The translations under genes were made by a program, and so were the position numbers. The notes below the pieces were generated by a model that worked only from the letters and a program-made list of their open reading frames with translations, did no database searches and was not told where the DNA came from. A DNA stretch of 64,000 nt from positions 1,576 through 65,575 of the forward strand of contig CAJTZR010000001.1 of assembly GCA_910584035.1 (NCBI GenBank). Reading direction: 5' to 3'. This document shows, one piece after another, positions 5,099 to 45,626 of this stretch. Source of the stretch: an uncultured Christensenella sp. (lineage in GTDB: Bacteria > Bacillota > Clostridia > Christensenellales > UBA3700). How positions within the stretch are numbered: the first letter of the stretch is position 1; each line of letters opens with the position of its first letter.

Positions 5099-5500
5099 AT
5101 GAAAGGATATTTACCTATTACAAAACCATATCTTACTGAAAAGGAAATATTGGGACTTAATCCGTTGGTGCTTGCATTTGTAGGGGATAGCGTGCAACAG
5201 CTTATGGTGCGTACAAAACTTGCTTGCAATACTACCGCCAAAGCGGGGGAGTTGCATAAACTACAAGCCGAACAAATTAAGGCATCTGCACAAGCAAAGT
5301 ATATGGATGAGATAATGTCTATTTTGACAGAAGAAGAAATTGCCGTATTTAAGCGTGCAAGGAATAGTCATATGAACACCATAGCAAAAAATGCAACCAT
5401 TGCAGACTACAAAAAGGCGAGTGGCTTTGAGGCAGTAATTGGGTATCTTTATTTGCTTGGTAAAAACGAAAGATTGCAAGAGTTGTTTGAAAAAATTTAA
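5099..5500 (+). CDS. mrnC: Mini-ribonuclease III
   Basis: LAFVGDSV...ELHKLQ...NSHMNT...YKKASGFEAVIGYLYL are typical of Mini-III. I prefer the ATG at 5099 (AAAGGGG about 6 nt upstream) over the track's GTG at 5093. The position after gltX matches the Bacillus gene order. Confidence 0.8.
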   Translation: MKGYLPITKPYLTEKEILGLNPLVLAFVGDSVQQLMVRTKLACNTTAKAGELHKLQAEQIKASAQAKYMDEIMSILTEEEIAVFKRARNSHMNTIAKNATIADYKKASGFEAVIGYLYLLGKNERLQELFEKI

Positions 5501-5573
5501 GAGAATAATAAGTTTAAATGGATATTTAAGCTGTATTATGGCAAAATAATAACAAAAATATGTAGGAGGCAAT

Positions 5574-6404
5574 ATGAGTAAGGCTGATGAAATTTTTATC
5601 CAAAATATGAAAGACATTTTGAATAATGGCGTTTGGGATACAAATTTACCAGTGCGTCCAAAGTGGAGCGATGGAACACCTGCACATACAGTAAAAAAGT
5701 TTGGTATAGTTAATAGATATAATTTGCAAGAAGAATTCCCTATTTTGACAATAAGGAAAACCTTTTTTAAATCTTGCGTGGACGAGCTTTTGTGGATATG
5801 GCAGAAAAAAAGTAATAATATCAAAGATTTAAACTCAAAGATTTGGAACCAATGGGCAGACGAAAATGGCTCAATAGGTAAAGCATATGGCTATCAATTG
5901 GGTGTTAAACATTTGTATCGTGAGGGCGAGTTTGACCAAGTTGATAGAGTTCTTTATGATTTAAAAAATAATCCGTCAAGTCGCAGAATAATGACAAACA
6001 TTTATAATTTTGCTGATTTGCACGAAATGAACTTATATCCTTGTGCATATTCAATGACATTTAATGTCTCTGGTGATACTTTAAATGGTATTTTAAATCA
6101 ACGTTCTAACGATATGCTTACTGCAAATAACTGGAATGTTGTACAATATGCAATTTTGCTTATTATGTTTGCTCAAGTATCTGGCTTGAAAGTTGGTGAA
6201 CTTGTTCACGTTATAGCAGATGCTCATATTTATGATAGACACATACCTATGGTTGAGGACATAATTGGTCAAAAGCAGTTTACTGCTCCAAAACTTGAGG
6301 TGGACACAAGTATTAAAAACTTTTATGATTTTACTGTTGATAGTTTTAAATTAATTGATTATAACTGCAATGATAAAAAATATGAAATACCAGTTGCAGA
6401 GTAA
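5574..6404 (+). CDS. thyA: Thymidylate synthase (ThyA type)
   Basis: 276 aa. SRRIMTNIYN...LYPCAYSMTFNV (active-site Cys region) and NQRSNDM. RBS AGGAGG. Confidence 0.9.
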   Translation: MSKADEIFIQNMKDILNNGVWDTNLPVRPKWSDGTPAHTVKKFGIVNRYNLQEEFPILTIRKTFFKSCVDELLWIWQKKSNNIKDLNSKIWNQWADENGSIGKAYGYQLGVKHLYREGEFDQVDRVLYDLKNNPSSRRIMTNIYNFADLHEMNLYPCAYSMTFNVSGDTLNGILNQRSNDMLTANNWNVVQYAILLIMFAQVSGLKVGELVHVIADAHIYDRHIPMVEDIIGQKQFTAPKLEVDTSIKNFYDFTVDSFKLIDYNCNDKKYEIPVAE

Positions 6405-38338: not shown

Positions 38339-39229
38339 GTGGAATTTTTATCAGTTGCGGAAATTGCGAAAAAGTGGAATATTTCAGATAGAATGGTAAG
38401 GAATTATTGTGCCAGTGGTAGGATAGCGGGAGCATTTTTGACGGGCAAAACTTGGAATATCCCAGCCAATGCACAAAAGCCACTAAATGTAAAAGAGGAA
38501 AGTTGCGGTAATGATTTGTTAGCAATTTTAAAGCGAGAAAAAGATACGTCTTTAACTGGTGGTATATATCACAAAACGCAAATAGAATTAACATATAATT
38601 CCAACCATATTGAGGGTAGTACTTTAACTCACGACCAAACTAGATATATTTTTGAAACTTGTACTATAGGTGTTGAAAGTGGCAGTGCTTTGAATGTTGA
38701 CGATATTATTGAAACATCAAATCATTTTAAATGTGTTGATTACATTATTGATAATGCCACTAAGTCAATAAGCGAAGCAATGATAAAAAAATTGCATTTT
38801 ATTTTAAAAAACGGCACAAGCGATAGCCGAAAAAGTTGGTTTAATGTAGGCGAGTATAAAAAGTTGCCTAATGAGGTGGGGTTTGAGGAAACTTGTAAAC
38901 CCGAAAAAGTTAAGACTGAAATAAAAAAACTTTTGGATAGCTACAATGCCATACAAGATAAAACTTTTGAGCAAATTTTGCAGTTCCATAAAGATTTTGA
39001 GAGTATACACCCTTTTCAAGACGGCAATGGTAGAGTAGGCAGATTGATAATGTTTAAGGAATGTCTTGCTAATAACATTGTTCCTTTTATAATTGACGAA
39101 TATCATAAACTATTTTATTATCGTGGCTTAAAAGAATGGAAAACAGAAAAAGGTTACCTAATTGACACTTGCTTATCTTGTCAAGATAAATACAAGTCGT
39201 GGCTTGATTATTTTCAAATCAAGTATTAA
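38339..39229 (+). CDS. Fic-family (AMPylase-type) protein with an N-terminal MerR/excisionase-like HTH
   Basis: GTG start after GAGAGGTG. LSVAEIAKKWNISDRMVRNYC is an HTH. HPFQDGNGRVGR matches HxFx(D/E)GNGRxxR. SNHIEG matches the inhibitory [ST]xxxE[GN] motif N-terminal to the core. Confidence 0.85.
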   Translation: MEFLSVAEIAKKWNISDRMVRNYCASGRIAGAFLTGKTWNIPANAQKPLNVKEESCGNDLLAILKREKDTSLTGGIYHKTQIELTYNSNHIEGSTLTHDQTRYIFETCTIGVESGSALNVDDIIETSNHFKCVDYIIDNATKSISEAMIKKLHFILKNGTSDSRKSWFNVGEYKKLPNEVGFEETCKPEKVKTEIKKLLDSYNAIQDKTFEQILQFHKDFESIHPFQDGNGRVGRLIMFKECLANNIVPFIIDEYHKLFYYRGLKEWKTEKGYLIDTCLSCQDKYKSWLDYFQIKY

Positions 39230-40512: not shown

Positions 40513-40732
40513 TTTGCTTTAATTAATTTAAATAGTGTATAGATATATAATTTATAATTTATAAATAAAAAGTTATAAAAATATAATAGTTTCCTTTTTT
40601 CGCTTATTTATTTAATTTTATTTATCATAAAAAGCTGATAGAAAATTATTAAAATATTTAAAAGAGTAAAAAATTAATTGTAATCAATTTTTTAAACCAT
40701 TAATTTTTAATTACATTTTAAATATTTTACAA

Positions 40733-40791
40733 TGCGTTTCATTTACGGAACGCATTTTTATTTTTCAAGTATTATAATTCGATGTGTCGAA
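40733..40791 (+). promoter_or_regulatory. Control region of HTH-A: GCGTT-N10-AACGC inverted repeat, TATAAT, TTCGA-N4-TCGAA palindrome
   Basis: TGCGTTTCATTTACGGAACGCA at 40733-40754; TATAAT at 40773-40778; TTCGATGTGTCGAA at 40778-40791. The same layout recurs upstream of HTH-C. Confidence 0.6.
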
Positions 40792-40817
40792 CATAAGTTT
40801 TGACTTAGGAGGATAAT

Positions 40818-41054
40818 ATGATAAAATTTAATGAAGCAGTTGCTCAAAGAACAAAGGAATTATTGAATGAGATAGGGAAAAAACCTTATTATCTCTATAA
40901 AGAAGGTGGTATACCACGTTCAACTATATCAAATGTTTTAAATTGTAATATAAATAAAGTAAGTGGTGAATTAATTTATCAAATTAGTAGTGTGTTGCAA
41001 ATTAAATTAAAAGATTTTTATGATTCACCTCTGTTTGATGAGATTAGTAATTAA
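40818..41054 (+). CDS. Small XRE-type HTH protein (paralogue A)
   Basis: 78 aa. LYKEGGIPRSTISNVLNC...LIYQISSVLQIKLKDFY fits an HTH_3-like helix-turn-helix. RBS AGGAGGA. Confidence 0.7.
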   Translation: MIKFNEAVAQRTKELLNEIGKKPYYLYKEGGIPRSTISNVLNCNINKVSGELIYQISSVLQIKLKDFYDSPLFDEISN

Positions 41055-41056
41055 AA

Positions 41057-41094
41057 CAAAATAGCACTTTCAAATTTTTGAAAGTGCTATTTTG
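41057..41094. terminator. Bidirectional terminator shared by HTH-A (+) and the SLOG gene (-)
   Basis: CAAAATAGCACTTTCAAA-TT-TTTGAAAGTGCTATTTTG, a perfect 18-bp inverted repeat. Confidence 0.7.
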
Positions 41095-41149
41095 TATGAT
41101 ATCAAGCAAACAATAGAATTATAAGAGATAAGAATACAAAATAACTATA

Positions 41150-41620
41150 TTATTCAAATAAATTTATAATTTGTTTCCCCATTTTTTCTGCATATTTTAC
41201 AGCTATTCTTGTGCCACCAAAAGAGATTCTGTTGTCATAATAACAAATTAGGGTGTCACAGCTATCAATCATTCTTTTATTGCTTTCAATAATTTTTTGT
41301 TTATAATGACACATTTCAATTTCGTACATTACAGTTTCTACGTCAGAATAAGGACGATAAACATCTTTACCAAAAATAACATCATAAGATATTTGGGGTT
41401 TTATTTGATTAAGGCTTGTTATAACAACCTCAATTCTAATTTTATGACCTTGTTGTCTTAATTCTCTGCACGCAGATAATGCAAATTCGTCAAAATTCCC
41501 ATAAGTTCCCATTGTAAAATAATTACAACCTAATTCAATTTCATTCTTTATAGCATTATACAACTTATCCGTTATTCGGTAAGCATCTCTATGTCCTATA
41601 AAAGCAACTTTTTTACTCAT
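41150..41620 (-). CDS. YpsA/DUF1273-like SLOG-superfamily protein
   Basis: 156 aa. VAFIGHRD...LGCNYFTMGTYGNFDEFALSA...IRIEVVI and the C-terminal NKRMIDSCDTLICYYDNRISFGGTRIAVKYAEKMGK follow the DUF1273 pattern as I recall it (TGHRP...G.lGvD...; rn.fmvd.sD.ll.vyD...gG). RBS AGAGGTG. Confidence 0.55.
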   Translation of the reverse strand: MSKKVAFIGHRDAYRITDKLYNAIKNEIELGCNYFTMGTYGNFDEFALSACRELRQQGHKIRIEVVITSLNQIKPQISYDVIFGKDVYRPYSDVETVMYEIEMCHYKQKIIESNKRMIDSCDTLICYYDNRISFGGTRIAVKYAEKMGKQIINLFE

Positions 41621-41634
41621 ATCGCACCTCTAAA

Positions 41635-41650
41635 GTTCCGTATACCGAAC
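41635..41650. promoter_or_regulatory. Palindrome GTTCCGTATACCGAAC just upstream of the SLOG RBS
   Basis: 7 of 8 arm positions are complementary. It lies in the 152-bp divergent control region between the SLOG gene and HTH-C. Confidence 0.45.
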
Positions 41651-41688
41651 GTTTTTTAAATTTTATCACGTTTTCAAGTTTTTGTAAA

Positions 41689-41746
41689 GCGTTTTGTATG
41701 TGGAACGCAATTTTTTATATAAAGTATTACAATTCGATATATCGAA
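41689..41746 (+). promoter_or_regulatory. Control region of HTH-C: GCGTT-N10-AACGC, TACAAT, perfect TTCGATATATCGAA palindrome
   Basis: GCGTTTTGTATGTGGAACGC at 41689-41708; TACAAT at 41728-41733; TTCGATATATCGAA at 41733-41746. Confidence 0.6.
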
Positions 41747-41772
41747 CATAATAATTGTATTAGGAGGACAAT

Positions 41773-42009
41773 ATGATTAAATTAAATGAGGCTATTGCAA
41801 AAAGAACAAGCGAGTTATTGAATGAGATAGGACAAAAGCCTTATTATCTCTTTAAAAAGGGTGGGGTGCCACGTTCAACAATATCCAACCTTTTGAGTTG
41901 TCAAATTAAAAATGTTAGTAGTGGTTTATTATATCAAATTTGTAGTACTTTAGACATAAAATTAAAAGACTTTTTTGACTCACCATTATTTGACGAAATT
42001 AGCGATTAA
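41773..42009 (+). CDS. Small XRE-type HTH protein (paralogue C)
   Basis: 78 aa. 57 of 78 residues are identical to paralogue A with no gaps (my hand alignment). RBS AGGAGGA. Confidence 0.7.
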   Translation: MIKLNEAIAKRTSELLNEIGQKPYYLFKKGGVPRSTISNLLSCQIKNVSSGLLYQICSTLDIKLKDFFDSPLFDEISD

Positions 42010-42230: not shown

Positions 42231-42259
42231 TTGACATTTTATTAATTATAAGATATAAT
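42231..42259 (+). promoter_or_regulatory. Consensus promoter TTGACA-17-TATAAT for the 440-aa/hydrolase operon
   Basis: TTGACA at 42231-42236 and TATAAT at 42254-42259, 22 nt before the ATG at 42281. Confidence 0.65.
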
Positions 42260-42280
42260 ATAATTATAAGGAATTTACAT

Positions 42281-43603
42281 ATGACAAATTTAGGTGTGCA
42301 ACAATTACATATTATACCATTTGATTTAGGGTGTGTTTTTTATGATTGTTTAAGTATTAACAATTCAAAAAATTTAGATTTTGCAAAACATTTTATTGAT
42401 AAATTAACAAATGATTCTAAAGCATACAATTTTACAATTGAGAATAATATAGTATTAAAATACACGGGTAAAGAAATAACGGATATTGAATATAAAAAAT
42501 GCAAATTGGCAGAGACTGCAATTTGTATTGCTAATTTAATGCCAAATTTAAAATGTTATATTTTAGCTAATGGTATTGGTATTTTTGTATTAGCTGATTT
42601 AGAGGGAAAGGCGTTATTAAAAACTGATGAATCAATTAAAGATTATAGTAAAGCGATATTGGCTAATTATCAAAAAAAAGTAACTCAAGCAAGTATTTTA
42701 AAGAGGTTTAATGGTGAAGAGATACTTTCAGAAGAAAATAAAGCTATGTTAACTTTTCGTGAACTATGTTGGAATATTGTAAATGAGAGAAGCATTAAAA
42801 GAAAAAGTGTCAATGTAAGAAAATATTCTGGTTCAAGTAGTTATAAAGCTAATGGCTTGTCGTATGTGCTTAGTATTTATCTATTAAAAGAGAATGAATT
42901 AACAAAGAATGAACTTAATCACCTTATGCGTTCTACTATATTTAACAAAGTTGTTGATAAGAATGAGTGGGCAAAAATAAATGAAACAATTTATAATTTA
43001 GAGTGTGAGGATAATGTTACTACATTAAAAATTGGTGATACTAATACATATTATTCGTGGTCTGCAGTTGCCGTTGAGGTAAAACAAGATATTGACAATT
43101 TTGATGAGATTTCTAAAAATTCTGTTTTATCGGCTATGATTAAATCGGAATTATATGTTCAATCAAGATGGTTTATTGCAGACAATTCTATGGATAATGT
43201 TAATAAAAATTCACATTGTAGCTTAGAGGGGTTGCAAAGACTGGCAAGCTTTGTTGAATTTTCACAAGCAGAGTTGGAAAACGATATTAGTGCAAATATG
43301 AATTCGCTTTATAAAAAAGTGTTAAATCAAGTTGTAATAACTTCTGAAGTAAGGCAATTATACAAATCGGTTGCAAATCAAATTAATACGCAAAAAAAGA
43401 TTAAAGAAGCTCACTATCAAGATAAAAAAAGAAAAAATAAATTGATAGCTGACTTGTTTTTGGCAGTATTCTCTGCGTCCACATTATACAAAACAGTTAT
43501 GGACCTTATAAGTGGTAAATTTGATTGGTATAATTGGTTGATTTTTGCAGCAATGTTGGTTATTGCAGTGGGAACAATAATTTTTAATTATAAAAATAAA
43601 TAG
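42281..43603 (+). CDS. Uncharacterised 440-aa protein: soluble N-terminal region, K/Q/E-rich helical segment, two hydrophobic helices at the extreme C-terminus
   Basis: Long ORF with its own consensus promoter. C-terminal LIADLFLAVFSASTLYKTVMDLI and WYNWLIFAAMLVIAVGTIIF are TM-like. I recognise no catalytic or family motif. Confidence 0.8.
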   Translation: MTNLGVQQLHIIPFDLGCVFYDCLSINNSKNLDFAKHFIDKLTNDSKAYNFTIENNIVLKYTGKEITDIEYKKCKLAETAICIANLMPNLKCYILANGIGIFVLADLEGKALLKTDESIKDYSKAILANYQKKVTQASILKRFNGEEILSEENKAMLTFRELCWNIVNERSIKRKSVNVRKYSGSSSYKANGLSYVLSIYLLKENELTKNELNHLMRSTIFNKVVDKNEWAKINETIYNLECEDNVTTLKIGDTNTYYSWSAVAVEVKQDIDNFDEISKNSVLSAMIKSELYVQSRWFIADNSMDNVNKNSHCSLEGLQRLASFVEFSQAELENDISANMNSLYKKVLNQVVITSEVRQLYKSVANQINTQKKIKEAHYQDKKRKNKLIADLFLAVFSASTLYKTVMDLISGKFDWYNWLIFAAMLVIAVGTIIFNYKNK

Positions 43604-43610
43604 GTGTTTT

Positions 43611-44165
43611 ATGAAAAATATTTTAATAGTTGTTGATGTGCAAAATGGGTTTAATCGTTATGAACAAACACATATTTTAGTTGATAAAATTGCAAAGTTA
43701 ACAAATAGTGGTTTATTTGACAAGATAATAGCAACAAGATTTAGAAATAAAGAGGGTAGTCAGTACACAAAATTTCTAAATTGGCATAGGCTTATAGATG
43801 ATAATGATATTGAATTGGTAAAAGGCATTAAAGCGGATTTAGTTGTTGATAAGTGGATATACACTTGTATTAATGAGCAATTTATTTCTTTATTAAAACA
43901 AGTTAATGACAACGAATTACCAACACACATTTTTATCTGCGGTGCAGATACTGATTGTTGTGTTTTAAAAATAGCGACAGATATTTTTGAGCAAGGTATA
44001 ATGCCTATCGTATTAAGTGAATATTGCGATTCTAATGCTGGACCATTGTCTCACGAGGCAGGTTTATTAGTTATGAAAAGACTTATTGGAAAAAATAGTA
44101 TAGTTTCTAATGTCATTGCTAGTAAAGAGGATATTCAAAACATTATAAAAGAAAGACAATATTAA
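43611..44165 (+). CDS. Isochorismatase-family cysteine hydrolase (nicotinamidase-like fold; substrate unknown)
   Basis: 184 aa. ILIVVDVQNGF and ICGADTDCCV are the hallmark Asp and Cys motifs of the family. It starts 7 nt after the preceding stop, with RBS TAGGTG. Confidence 0.75.
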   Translation: MKNILIVVDVQNGFNRYEQTHILVDKIAKLTNSGLFDKIIATRFRNKEGSQYTKFLNWHRLIDDNDIELVKGIKADLVVDKWIYTCINEQFISLLKQVNDNELPTHIFICGADTDCCVLKIATDIFEQGIMPIVLSEYCDSNAGPLSHEAGLLVMKRLIGKNSIVSNVIASKEDIQNIIKERQY

Positions 44166-44181
44166 TCTAGTTATTGCATTG

Positions 44182-44212
44182 CCACCCTAGTTATAAATAG
44201 GGTGGTTTTATA
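44182..44212 (+). terminator. Terminator ending the island operon
   Basis: CCACCCTA-GTTATAAA-TAGGGTGG followed by TTTTATATTTT. Confidence 0.7.
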
Positions 44213-44266
44213 TTTTAACAATTATACAAAGAAATGTATAAAAGGTGAGTAAATTTGTGGTATTTA

Positions 44267-44337: not shown

Positions 44338-44366
44338 TTGACAAAATTGCATATTGTTTGTATAAT
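44338..44366 (+). promoter_or_regulatory. argG promoter TTGACA-17-TATAAT
   Basis: TTGACA at 44338-44343 and TATAAT at 44361-44366. Confidence 0.65.
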
Positions 44367-44399: not shown

Positions 44400-45626
44400 A
44401 TGGATAAGAAAGATATTAAAAAAGTTGTTTTAGCATATTCAGGTGGTTTAGATACTTCTATTATAATTCCTTGGCTTAAGGAAAACTACAATAACTGCGA
44501 GGTTATCGCTGTTTCTGGTAACGTTGGACAAGCTGACGAGCTTGAGGGACTAGAGGAAAAGGCTTTAAAAACTGGTGCATCTAAACTATATGTTGAAGAT
44601 TTGACTGACGAGTTTGTTGAGGACTACATTATTCCTACAGTTAAAGCTGGTGCTTTGTATGAGGAGTATATGTTGGGTACATCTTTTGCACGTCCAATCA
44701 TTGCAAAGAGAATTGTTGAAATCGCATTAAAAGAAGGTGCTGACGCTATTTGTCACGGCTGTACTGGTAAGGGTAACGACCAAGTAAGGTTTGAGCTTAC
44801 TATTAAAGCATTTGCACCAGATATGCACATTATTGCACCTTGGAGAGAGTGGTCAATCAAGAGCCGTGAGGAGGAAATTGACTATGCAGAAAAACACAAT
44901 GTTCCATTAAAAATCAATCGTGAAACTAACTATAGTAAAGATAAGAACTTATGGCATTTGTCACACGAGGGTTTGGACTTGGAAGATGCTGGCAATGAGC
45001 CACTTTATGATAAAGAGGGCTTTTTGGAAATGGGCGTATCACCATTTAAAGCACCAGATAAGCCAACATACATAACAATGGACTTTGAGCAAGGTGTTCC
45101 AGTTAAGTTGAATGATAAGAAAATGAGTCCAAAGGAAATCGTTTTGGCACTAAATAAGTTTGGTGGTGAAAATGGTATTGGTCTATTGGATATTGTTGAA
45201 AATCGTTTAGTTGGTATGAAATGCCGTGGCGTTTATGAAACTCCAGGTGGTGCAATTTTATACTTTGCTCATAAGTATTTGGAAAGCTTGTGTTTAGATA
45301 AATATACAGCTCACAAAAAACAAGAACTTGCAGTTACTTTTGCAGATTTAGTTTACAATGGTCAATGGTTCACACCATTAAGAGAGGCTCTTTCAGCTTT
45401 TGTTGACAAAACTCAAGAAAGGGTTACTGGTAAAGTAAAACTTAAATTATACAAAGGTAACATTATTAAAGCAGGTGCTTGGAGTGATTACTCATTGTAT
45501 TCAGAGGAAATTGCTACTTTTGGTGAGGATAATGTTTACAATCAAGCTGATGCAACTGGCTTTATTAACTTGTTTGGTTTGCCAATCAAAGTACAAGCAC
45601 AAGTTAATGCTAAAAATAAAAAATAA
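44400..45626 (+). CDS. argG: Argininosuccinate synthase
   Basis: 408 aa. [12 protein letters not shown]-binding motif and [13 protein letters not shown]. Confidence 0.95.

Follow-up and report, generated by a model that had tools for sequence, protein, structure and literature searches.

The 64,000-nucleotide (nt) stretch of contig CAJTZR010000001.1 (positions 1,576 to 65,575; GenBank assembly GCA_910584035.1), derived from an uncultured Christensenella sp. and hereafter referred to as the window, encodes a compact two-gene operon in which a membrane protein of an undescribed family (gene A) is followed by an isochorismatase-family hydrolase (gene B). A and B are functionally coupled, and their strict linkage is the strongest result of this analysis. 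By comparison with known systems, the pair may represent a ligand-sensing membrane effector together with the enzyme degrading its ligand, a combination undescribed in the PADLOC models or in the literature searched. A is tentatively read as a ligand-gated membrane effector whose ligand would be deamidated by B, the two acting as a conflict module, and this reading is regarded as possible rather than probable. The analysis shows the operon structure, the fold class, the catalytic residues, the linkage and co-divergence of A and B, the fusion of B with PncC, the coupling to Flavodoxin_2 genes and the mobile or defence-type contexts, while the channel oligomer, the identity of the ligand, the direction of gating and the role in conflict are what we infer.

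Organization of the operon

The operon comprises the following features, all on the forward strand of the window.

42231..42259, +, operon promoter of the sigma-70 type (TTGACA-17-TATAAT), matching the consensus at 12/12 positions
42281..43603, +, gene A, open reading frame (ORF) of 440 amino acids (aa) for a membrane protein with CorA-like architecture, without the GMN motif and of an undescribed family
43602..43606, +, AGGTG ribosome-binding site (Shine-Dalgarno sequence) of gene B, overlapping the TAG stop codon of gene A, as read from the sequence
43611..44165, +, gene B, ORF of 184 aa for an isochorismatase-family cysteine amidohydrolase
44181..44216, +, intrinsic terminator with a hairpin (44181-44206) of a 9-bp stem containing five GC pairs, an 8-nt loop and a T-run

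The initial annotation, made from the DNA letters and a list of ORFs, had described a two-gene operon here, and its layout is borne out in full, including the promoter, the two ORFs, the 7-nt spacer between them (43604-43610) and the hairpin terminator with its T-run. As the AGGTG site overlaps the stop codon of gene A, translational coupling of gene B to gene A is likely, and the gap between the two genes is 1-13 nt in nearly all homologous loci. Codon changes were counted against locus L014, which belongs to a mouse-gut metagenome-assembled genome (MAG) labelled 'uncultured Christensenella sp.' that is 94-96% identical to the window. Gene A differs by 13 synonymous and 5 non-synonymous changes and gene B by 29 synonymous and 4 non-synonymous ones; both ORFs are judged to be real genes, because these changes are mostly synonymous and many full-length homologues exist.

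The stretch containing the operon promoter is identical in L014, while the helix-turn-helix (HTH) gene just upstream has diverged. A second 12/12 TTGACA-17-TATAAT promoter is present at 44338-44366 (+) before argG, so that a perfect match alone is weak evidence in such an AT-rich genome; promoter-like sites number 42 in the region against 32 ± 5.6 in shuffled sequences. Terminator-like sites are strongly over-represented as a class, with 7 observed against 0.8 in shuffles. The pair lies within a 4-kb islet of 22-29% GC, compared with 35-40% in the flanks, and neither Rfam families nor tRNAs were found near this islet; the distance of only ~21 nt from the -10 box to the ATG of gene A would not accommodate a riboswitch.

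Linkage and co-divergence of A and B

B is located directly downstream of A in all of the 23 loci collected first (tblastn), and the same holds for 17 of 17 additional metagenome loci in which the contig extends beyond gene A. Whether the two genes are linked in other genomes had been raised together with the initial annotation; they are, in every testable locus. An isochorismatase gene directly follows A in six relatives ranging from 63% to 27% identity, the flanking genes differing completely each time, and the adjacency also holds for remote relatives of A at ~19-27% identity. A reverse search that began with a hydrolase of 56% identity led to an upstream ORF of 412 aa, which proved to be a remote homologue of A (hhalign probability 98.8%, E 1e-16). 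Across loci, the identity of A to its window counterpart varies together with that of B (Spearman 0.83, n=28), with B the more conserved partner in 26 of the 28.

The converse notion, that B is always accompanied by A, was rejected, as two phage contigs carry a B-type hydrolase alone (47% identity, E 1e-63) with no A partner. One of these is a 191-kb, jumbo-phage-sized IMG/VR contig (L062 2970-6537), where a soluble 290-aa ORF precedes the lone hydrolase by 13 nt and an RtcB RNA ligase is encoded nearby; this ORF is unrelated to A and possesses no transmembrane (TM) helix. In L022 (7310-8418), gene A is followed by two tandem hydrolases that are 51% and 39% identical to B.

Protein A

The 440-aa protein had been regarded as an orphan, a view that does not hold, since a word-indexed search recovered 104 homologous clusters at 90% identity and an exhaustive search of 1.84 billion representatives recovered 69 representatives at 50% identity (E<=1e-3). 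All of the 104 clusters are unnamed or 'hypothetical', and none contains a Pfam domain. The scan patterns of A matched 9 of 185,579 species-representative genomes, all of them MAGs of uncultured Clostridia, Bacilli or Christensenella. The family is, as far as these searches indicate, real but rare; all carriers are metagenome-assembled genomes, among which one label, 'Odoribacter', may be a binning error.

No characterized family was found for this protein, as searched in Pfam, NCBIfam, PADLOC, PHROGs and PDB sequences. The window protein gave only noise against the first four collections, and Pfam matched none of 33 aligned relatives, PF01544 being absent even at E<=1. The GMN motif, already noted as missing from the window protein, is found neither in the 33 aligned relatives nor in a regular-expression scan of all collected sequences, and A was rejected as a member of PF01544 (CorA/MIT) for want of both the motif and a profile match. 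The alignment A1 of the family contains the invariant motifs PFDxG, GxGxF, YQKK, RxxSxxxxYKxxGLSYVL, SWSAV, ExxVQSRWFxADNSMDN and ISANM (x represents any amino acid), nearly all invariant polar and aromatic residues being located in the soluble part. Among the invariant positions are D15, K132, R180, Y188/K189, E290, D301/D305/N306 and N339.

As initially described, A has a helix rich in K/Q/E (residues 357-388) and, at its C-terminus, two hydrophobic helices (nt 43442-43591); the protein is divided as follows.

42281..43348, +, predicted cytoplasmic sensor region (residues 1-356), two beta-sheet/alpha modules and a helical bundle, from alignment A1 and the model
43349..43441, +, cytoplasmic part of the stalk helix (residues 357-387), K/Q/E-rich and ending in a basic KKRKNK collar, from DSSP and the sequence
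43442..43510, +, TM1 (~residues 388-410), LFLAVFSASTLYKTV, Kyte-Doolittle mean over 19 residues of 1.45, at the position where CorA has GMN
43526..43591, +, TM2 (~residues 416-437), strongly hydrophobic (Kyte-Doolittle 2.1), model helix 416-439, followed by the basic C-terminus NYKNK

The AlphaFold2 model of A, built from the family alignment, has a pLDDT of 86.9 and a pTM of 0.82. In this model the stalk helix spans residues 357-400 (44 residues, DSSP) and is continuous into TM1, the remainder of which forms a helix of residues 403-410. TM1 is weakly hydrophobic and polar-faced, holding Ser, Thr, Tyr and Lys residues as expected of a pore-lining helix, and F397 and S401 within it are nearly invariant. 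The basic residues at both cytoplasmic ends lead to a predicted N-in/C-in topology, and the succession of stalk, polar TM1, loop, TM2 and basic tail is kept across the whole A superfamily. The cytoplasmic domain is presumed to contain a ligand pocket.

In a Foldseek search of the A model against the PDB, the top 21 ranks were all CorA or ZntB proteins, with ~310 aligned columns and a probability of up to 1.0, and the best match among viral models (BFVD) was a phage 'Mg2+ transporter'. The CorA-like layout proposed in the initial annotation stands as a description, with the order of secondary-structure elements and the two TM helices in agreement; the similarity is confined to a marginal match of fold (E ~3e-3 and TM-scores of 0.23-0.30 for the best matches), and no homology emerged at the profile level. 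The resemblance to CorA, judged from the model, appears consistent yet marginal at the fold level, and membership of the CorA family is not established.

Two database entries related to A merit separate mention. The 396-aa protein P0099 joins ParB and DNA-methylase domains to the C-terminal 45 residues of an A-type sequence; it is probably a chimera produced by gene calling or assembly that mirrors the adjacency of A/B to ParB-methylase genes in the phage loci L018 and L026. P0132 (L023 5001-6368; 25% identity to A) is encoded 10 nt after a P-type cation ATPase and without a hydrolase; the locus does not translate to P0132 with table 11, suggesting an alternative genetic code, and its neighbourhood with ldh, pgk and tuf is Mollicutes-like.

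Hydrolase B

B matches PF00857 (E 5.6e-16; 59.5 bits against a cut-off of 27) and carries the two family hallmarks reported initially, ILIVVDVQNGF and ICGADTDCCV. Its catalytic triad is intact and consists of D9 (43635-43637), K81 (43851-43853) and C117 (43959-43961), which are invariant in the 23 sequences of alignment A2 and align with the catalytic residues of solved nicotinamidases and of CSHase (carbamoylsarcosine-amidase)-type enzymes in the PDB. The AlphaFold2 model (pLDDT 96.5) has the cysteine-hydrolase fold and gave 140 Foldseek matches in the PDB at E<=1e-3, with TM-scores of 0.6-0.76, superposing on nicotinamidases, the maleamate amidohydrolase NicF, the triuret hydrolase TrtA and uncharacterized members at 13-24% identity, while phmmer of B against PDB sequences found no relative.

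In nicotinamidases, an Asp/His/His metal site holds the pyridine nitrogen. This site is replaced in B, which reads ATRFxNxEGS where the Pyrococcus horikoshii enzyme has ATRDWHPENH, and F44 and N46 are invariant inside this segment. That the hydrolase might be a conventional PncA, a possibility raised at the outset, was rejected since the metal site is missing and phmmer gave no PDB match. B is predicted to be an active cysteine amidohydrolase of a new isochorismatase subfamily. The missing metal site points to a substrate without a free ring nitrogen, such as nicotinamide riboside (NR) or nicotinamide mononucleotide (NMN), or to a different amide. In locus L043 (1634-2497), the hydrolase ORF of 287 aa consists of a B-type domain and ~100 extra C-terminal residues without a Pfam match.

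Fusion with PncC and coupling to Flavodoxin_2 genes

P0142 is a distant but certain relative of A (hhalign probability 99.9%, E 1e-32), and its gene is followed after 3 nt by that of a 350-aa fusion protein, of which the N-terminal half belongs to the B subfamily (E 3e-46, 40% identity) and the C-terminal half to CinA/PncC (PF02464, E 4.5e-50). This architecture, a B-type hydrolase joined to CinA/PncC, occurs in ~78 clusters, some of which are named 'nicotinamide-nucleotide amidohydrolase' by their sources. An independent fusion, P0321, is part of a three-gene operon with 1-nt junctions, in which a Flavodoxin_2 gene, a 434-aa homologue of A (probability 99.7%, E 4e-27) and the fusion gene follow one another. 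There are two independent loci with the order Flavodoxin_2, A homologue and B::PncC, with junctions of 1-8 nt.

The Flavodoxin_2 genes of L054, L031 and L021 share 40-47% mutual identity, and that of L021, an orthologue, stands in a locus of the two-gene type whose A is 71% identical to the window protein. The Flavodoxin_2 gene overlaps the start of A in L021 and L031. It is recurrent but facultative, being absent from most loci, the window included. PncC acts in the pyridine-nucleotide cycle as its NMN deamidase, and the Flavodoxin_2 family consists of NAD(P)H-dependent flavoenzymes. The PncC fusion and the Flavodoxin_2 coupling point to pyridine-nucleotide chemistry, and with the nicotinamidase-like fold of B they make a nicotinamide-bearing compound the best guess for its substrate. 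The Macro-domain genes upstream in L013 and L019 and the SEFIR/TIR gene next to L050 are counted as further hints in this direction. Of the functions suggested initially, chemistry related to nicotinamide adenine dinucleotide (NAD+) thereby gains support from the fusion and the flavoprotein gene; signal degradation or immunity does not, as neither a defence model nor a linked signal-making enzyme was found and that part stays a conjecture.

Downstream of the three-gene variant in L054 (5852-9062), genes for an AAA ATPase (660 aa), two ~158-aa proteins without a family and a VWA protein may form another accessory system.

Genomic contexts of the pair

No neighbour is conserved across the A-B loci. 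Two phage loci, the prophage L018 and the IMG/VR phage L026, have the pair between TerL and ParB-methylase plus portal genes, and in L001 it comes after three serine recombinases and before genes for RNase III, a 469-aa protein and GmrSD. Its neighbours elsewhere are integrases with Macro-domain genes and a MqsA/Panacea gene; Macro and PD-(D/E)XK genes with a methylase and ResIII; a serine recombinase with Rep; a serine recombinase with a SEFIR/TIR gene (L050); and a Card1-like protein with a serine recombinase. Macro-domain genes are upstream of the pair in L013 and L019. By raw count, mobile or defence genes occur within 5 kb (<=5 kb) in roughly 11 of ~27 independent contexts. The insertion sites of housekeeping type include the genes of prolyl- and valyl-tRNA synthetases (ProRS, ValRS), yidC-jag/mnmE-mnmG (L022) and, in the window, gap/argG. 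The A-B operon is self-contained and horizontally mobile. No corA gene, sought as a comparator, is present in the window or in the fetched loci.

In L001 (8165-13001), the genes downstream of the pair comprise an RNase III-dsRBD gene overlapping that of the family-less 469-aa protein, a small zinc-ribbon ORF and a GmrSD-type enzyme, and they may constitute a separate uncharacterized defence cluster on the same serine-recombinase element.

Relation to known systems

CorA, ZntB and Mrs2 (PF01544), of which CorA/ZntB are the only PDB fold matches of A, appear similar to it in overall layout as judged from the model, in which an alpha/beta cytoplasmic domain leads through a stalk helix into TM1, a short loop on the outer side connects to TM2, and the C-terminus is basic. 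The cytoplasmic part of A, with ~385 residues and two beta-sheet modules, is larger than that of CorA, and where CorA has GMN, A has LYKT according to a non-significant alignment with the Thermotoga maritima protein (TmCorA). B shares with PncA (PF00857) the fold and the Asp-Lys-Cys triad, whereas it lacks the metal site and is obligatorily paired with a membrane protein; PncC/CinA (PF02464) is fused to the B-type hydrolase in a sister clade. The KefC-KefF system resembles some A-B loci in combining a membrane ion-conducting protein with an operon-coupled Flavodoxin_2 protein, but its membrane protein is unrelated to A, and here the flavoprotein is facultative and the constant partner is an amidohydrolase.

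The closest precedent in logic is found in type III CRISPR, where a CorA-family effector is encoded beside, and sometimes fused to, an enzyme degrading its activating ligand SAM-AMP (PMC10600005), and where CorA alone is toxic and the ligand-degrading enzyme relieves the toxicity (Chi et al. 2023, PMC10600005). The likeness of the CorA-NrN pair to A-B, a CorA-type membrane protein with a large cytoplasmic domain and an adjacent small enzyme, is one of logic only. The adjacent enzyme of the CRISPR systems is an NrN or DEDD phosphodiesterase or a SAM-AMP lyase, whereas B is a PF00857 cysteine amidohydrolase, so that its ligand could not be SAM-AMP-like in its labile bond; the CRISPR effectors are linked to cas10, whereas the annotated neighbours in ~30 independent A-B loci include neither cas10 nor any other signal synthase. 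On these two grounds the pair was rejected as a CRISPR-CorA module. Phages are reported to carry the ligand-destroying enzyme alone as counter-defence (PMC12255297), a situation paralleled by the lone phage copies of B.

A similar logic, with a cytoplasmic sensor, few TM helices, residence in mobile defence islands and membrane damage, applies to the two-TM, CARF-TM and SLATT effectors of CBASS, Thoeris II, Pycsar and Panoptes, although no PADLOC model of these systems matches A or B. To our knowledge, these four systems always include a nucleotide cyclase or a TIR signal generator, and none uses an isochorismatase-family enzyme.

Proposed function and alternative explanations

In the proposed mechanism, A would be a ligand-gated inner-membrane channel or effector whose opening is harmful, and B would deamidate the small molecule controlling it, thereby setting the threshold and resetting the switch. 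The ligand would most likely bear nicotinamide (nicotinamide, NR or NMN), these compounds being by-products of NAD+ cleavage or consumption. If the ligand rose faster than B removes it, or if B were blocked, on the occasion of infection, NAD+ breakdown or loss of the element, A would open and ion homeostasis would collapse, and the module would serve phages and integrative elements as an abortive-infection, exclusion or addiction device. Lone B genes in phages would be expected if the hydrolase can act as an antidote. A more far-reaching version, which is thought unlikely, is that the pair and its Flavodoxin_2/A/B::PncC variants form a stand-alone immune or exclusion class that has no signal synthase and responds to nicotinamide, NR or NMN arising as a by-product when NAD+ is consumed. 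Sources of this by-product might be NADase defences, phage ADP-ribosyltransferases or the NAD-dependent ligase in phage replication; the amidohydrolase would set the alarm threshold, the CorA-fold pore would execute the response, and the lone phage hydrolases would be counter-defence.

Several observations weigh against a ligand-gated conflict effector. The CorA/ZntB matches of A in Foldseek are marginal (E 3e-3 to 1e-1, TM-scores 0.14-0.30), the profile of the A family (alignment A1) finds nothing among PDB sequences at E<=10, and hhalign against T. maritima CorA, which is weak evidence either way, gives a probability of 2.4% with only the TM hairpin aligned. The most distant relatives of A are without a hydrolase; one is encoded 10 nt after a P-type cation ATPase, which hints at an ion-transport ancestry and not an effector role, and another is found beside a Fic gene and an insertion sequence (IS) element. 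Roughly one context in two is a plain housekeeping neighbourhood, the annotated neighbours of ~30 independent loci include no cas gene and no other nucleotide or signal synthase, the models of PADLOC-DB 2.0 include no family for A or B at E<=1, and the literature searched yielded no paper connecting isochorismatases to anti-phage function or to CorA in defence. As B lacks the metal site used by all characterized nicotinamidases, free nicotinamide may not be its substrate. Finally, PncC, nicotinamidase-like and Flavodoxin_2 enzymes are typically metabolic, and a salvage role fits them equally well.

Such a role is the main rival, and is considered rather unlikely without being far-fetched. The pair would be an accessory NAD-salvage or uptake module, in which A, as a channel, transporter or membrane anchor, admits or senses nicotinamide, NR or NMN, and B, together with PncC when fused, deamidates them to nicotinate or nicotinate mononucleotide (NaMN), trapping them for the Preiss-Handler route; phages and mobile elements would then carry the pair as auxiliary metabolic genes, possibly rebuilding NAD+ after NADase-type immunity. 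Phages often carry NAD-salvage genes, and the lone B copies in phage contigs agree with this explanation, as do the recurrent B-CinA/PncC fusion (~78 clusters), the operon-coupled Flavodoxin_2 gene, the many housekeeping-type neighbourhoods and the slower evolution of B, which is expected of an enzyme with a fixed metabolite. However, CorA-fold proteins are ion channels, and transport of organic solutes is not known for any of them; nicotinamide requires no transporter, and B is devoid of the nicotinamidase metal site. The extreme rarity of the family (9/185,579 species genomes; 69 representatives in 1.84 billion proteins) also speaks against salvage, as does a chromosomal position that differs per lineage, unusual for a salvage pathway, and the pair is never beside pncB, nadD or nadE in the loci seen. 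The same fusion bears on a toxin-antitoxin-type addiction pair, in which A would be a membrane-damaging toxin neutralized by B through binding or modification, with no free ligand: fusion to PncC, a second small-molecule amidase, is hard to explain for an antitoxin that only binds. Such a pair would be in keeping with the compact two-gene cassette, which has a promoter and a terminator of its own and probable translational coupling, with its dispersal as islets among unrelated loci and mobile elements, with the co-divergence of A and B and with the extra B copy in L022. Yet the triad and many pocket residues of B are invariant over deep divergence, which argues for small-molecule catalysis, antitoxins usually evolve fast whereas B is better conserved than A, and lone B genes exist in phages; the explanation is accordingly judged improbable by us.

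A further explanation, which would accommodate the flavoprotein gene and the P-type ATPase neighbour, is a Kef-like stress-gated ion channel, with A releasing or admitting cations on a redox or electrophile signal and B and the flavoprotein detoxifying or processing the trigger compound. KefF and KefG, which regulate K+ efflux, belong to the Flavodoxin_2 family, and in three independent loci a gene of this family stands in tight coupling upstream of A; a distant A relative directly follows the cation ATPase, and the fold of A is CorA-like. This possibility is nevertheless given little credence, since most loci, among them the window, have no flavoprotein gene, mobile and phage carriage and extreme rarity are unexpected for a general stress system, and no link to glutathione or quinone genes was seen. 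An ordinary divalent-cation transporter that is next to an unrelated conventional nicotinamidase by chance would account for CorA/ZntB being the only fold matches and for the PF00857 match of B, but GMN is absent, PF01544 is unmatched in 33 family members, B lacks the PncA metal site, and the two genes are strictly linked wherever this could be tested, with co-divergence of their products; coincidental neighbours are effectively excluded.

Neighbouring genes in the window

Two further genes upstream of the pair are listed here.

38339-39229, +, HTH-Fic protein of 296 aa, PADLOC candidate defence family PDC-S04 (E 2e-112), also matching SoFic
41773..42009, +, Xre/Cro-type HTH gene of 78 aa (PF13443, E 3.4e-6), 270 nt upstream of gene A

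The Fic protein is encoded 3 kb upstream of the pair, with the gap gene (glyceraldehyde-3-phosphate dehydrogenase, GAPDH) in between, and the distant A relative P0119 (L024) likewise adjoins a Fic gene. The HTH gene at 41773..42009 may encode a local regulator, and it is not conserved as a component of the module. L014 has an HTH gene at the same place, only 56% identical, the gene upstream in L016 is an HTH_3 gene of a different family, and most other loci have no HTH gene.

Further upstream, a segment of 1.17 kb (40532-41696) contains another 78-aa HTH gene (40818-41054) and a convergent gene for a 156-aa SLOG/YpsA-like protein (41150-41620, minus strand), the latter with weak matches to PF06908, DUF4406 and nucleoside 2-deoxyribosyltransferase. 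This segment is absent from L014, which is 94-96% identical over the shared region, and is thus a strain-variable cassette. The upstream HTH and SLOG-like genes were rejected as parts of the module, as they are absent from other loci except for the HTH gene at the same place in L014. The small HTH gene exists in three alleles, those of the window (40706-41005 and 41661-41960) being 76% identical in DNA and the L014 protein (5365-5734) 56% identical to both, whereas the DNA just downstream of the HTH gene, including the promoter of the pair, is nearly identical between the window and L014. Compared with the surrounding DNA, the small HTH regulator evolves or recombines at a much higher rate. 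On the other side of the pair, argG (44400-45626) is followed on the same strand by argH, argC, argJ and others.

Biological implications

If the reading of A as a ligand-gated effector controlled by B is true, the pair would be the first CorA-fold effector working outside CRISPR and the first conflict module built on an isochorismatase-family amidase, and an ordinary metabolite of NAD+ turnover, not a purpose-made second messenger, would be the danger signal. A synthase-free sensor of NAD+ breakdown would be categorically new, and such a simple two-gene system would tie in with NAD+ as a central battleground between phages and bacteria. Even under the metabolic alternative, A would represent a new protein family that Pfam does not contain and for which a confident model exists, and B a new metal-independent branch of the nicotinamidase-like hydrolases, whose conserved operon partner and Rosetta-stone fusion narrow the search for its substrate to a handful of compounds.

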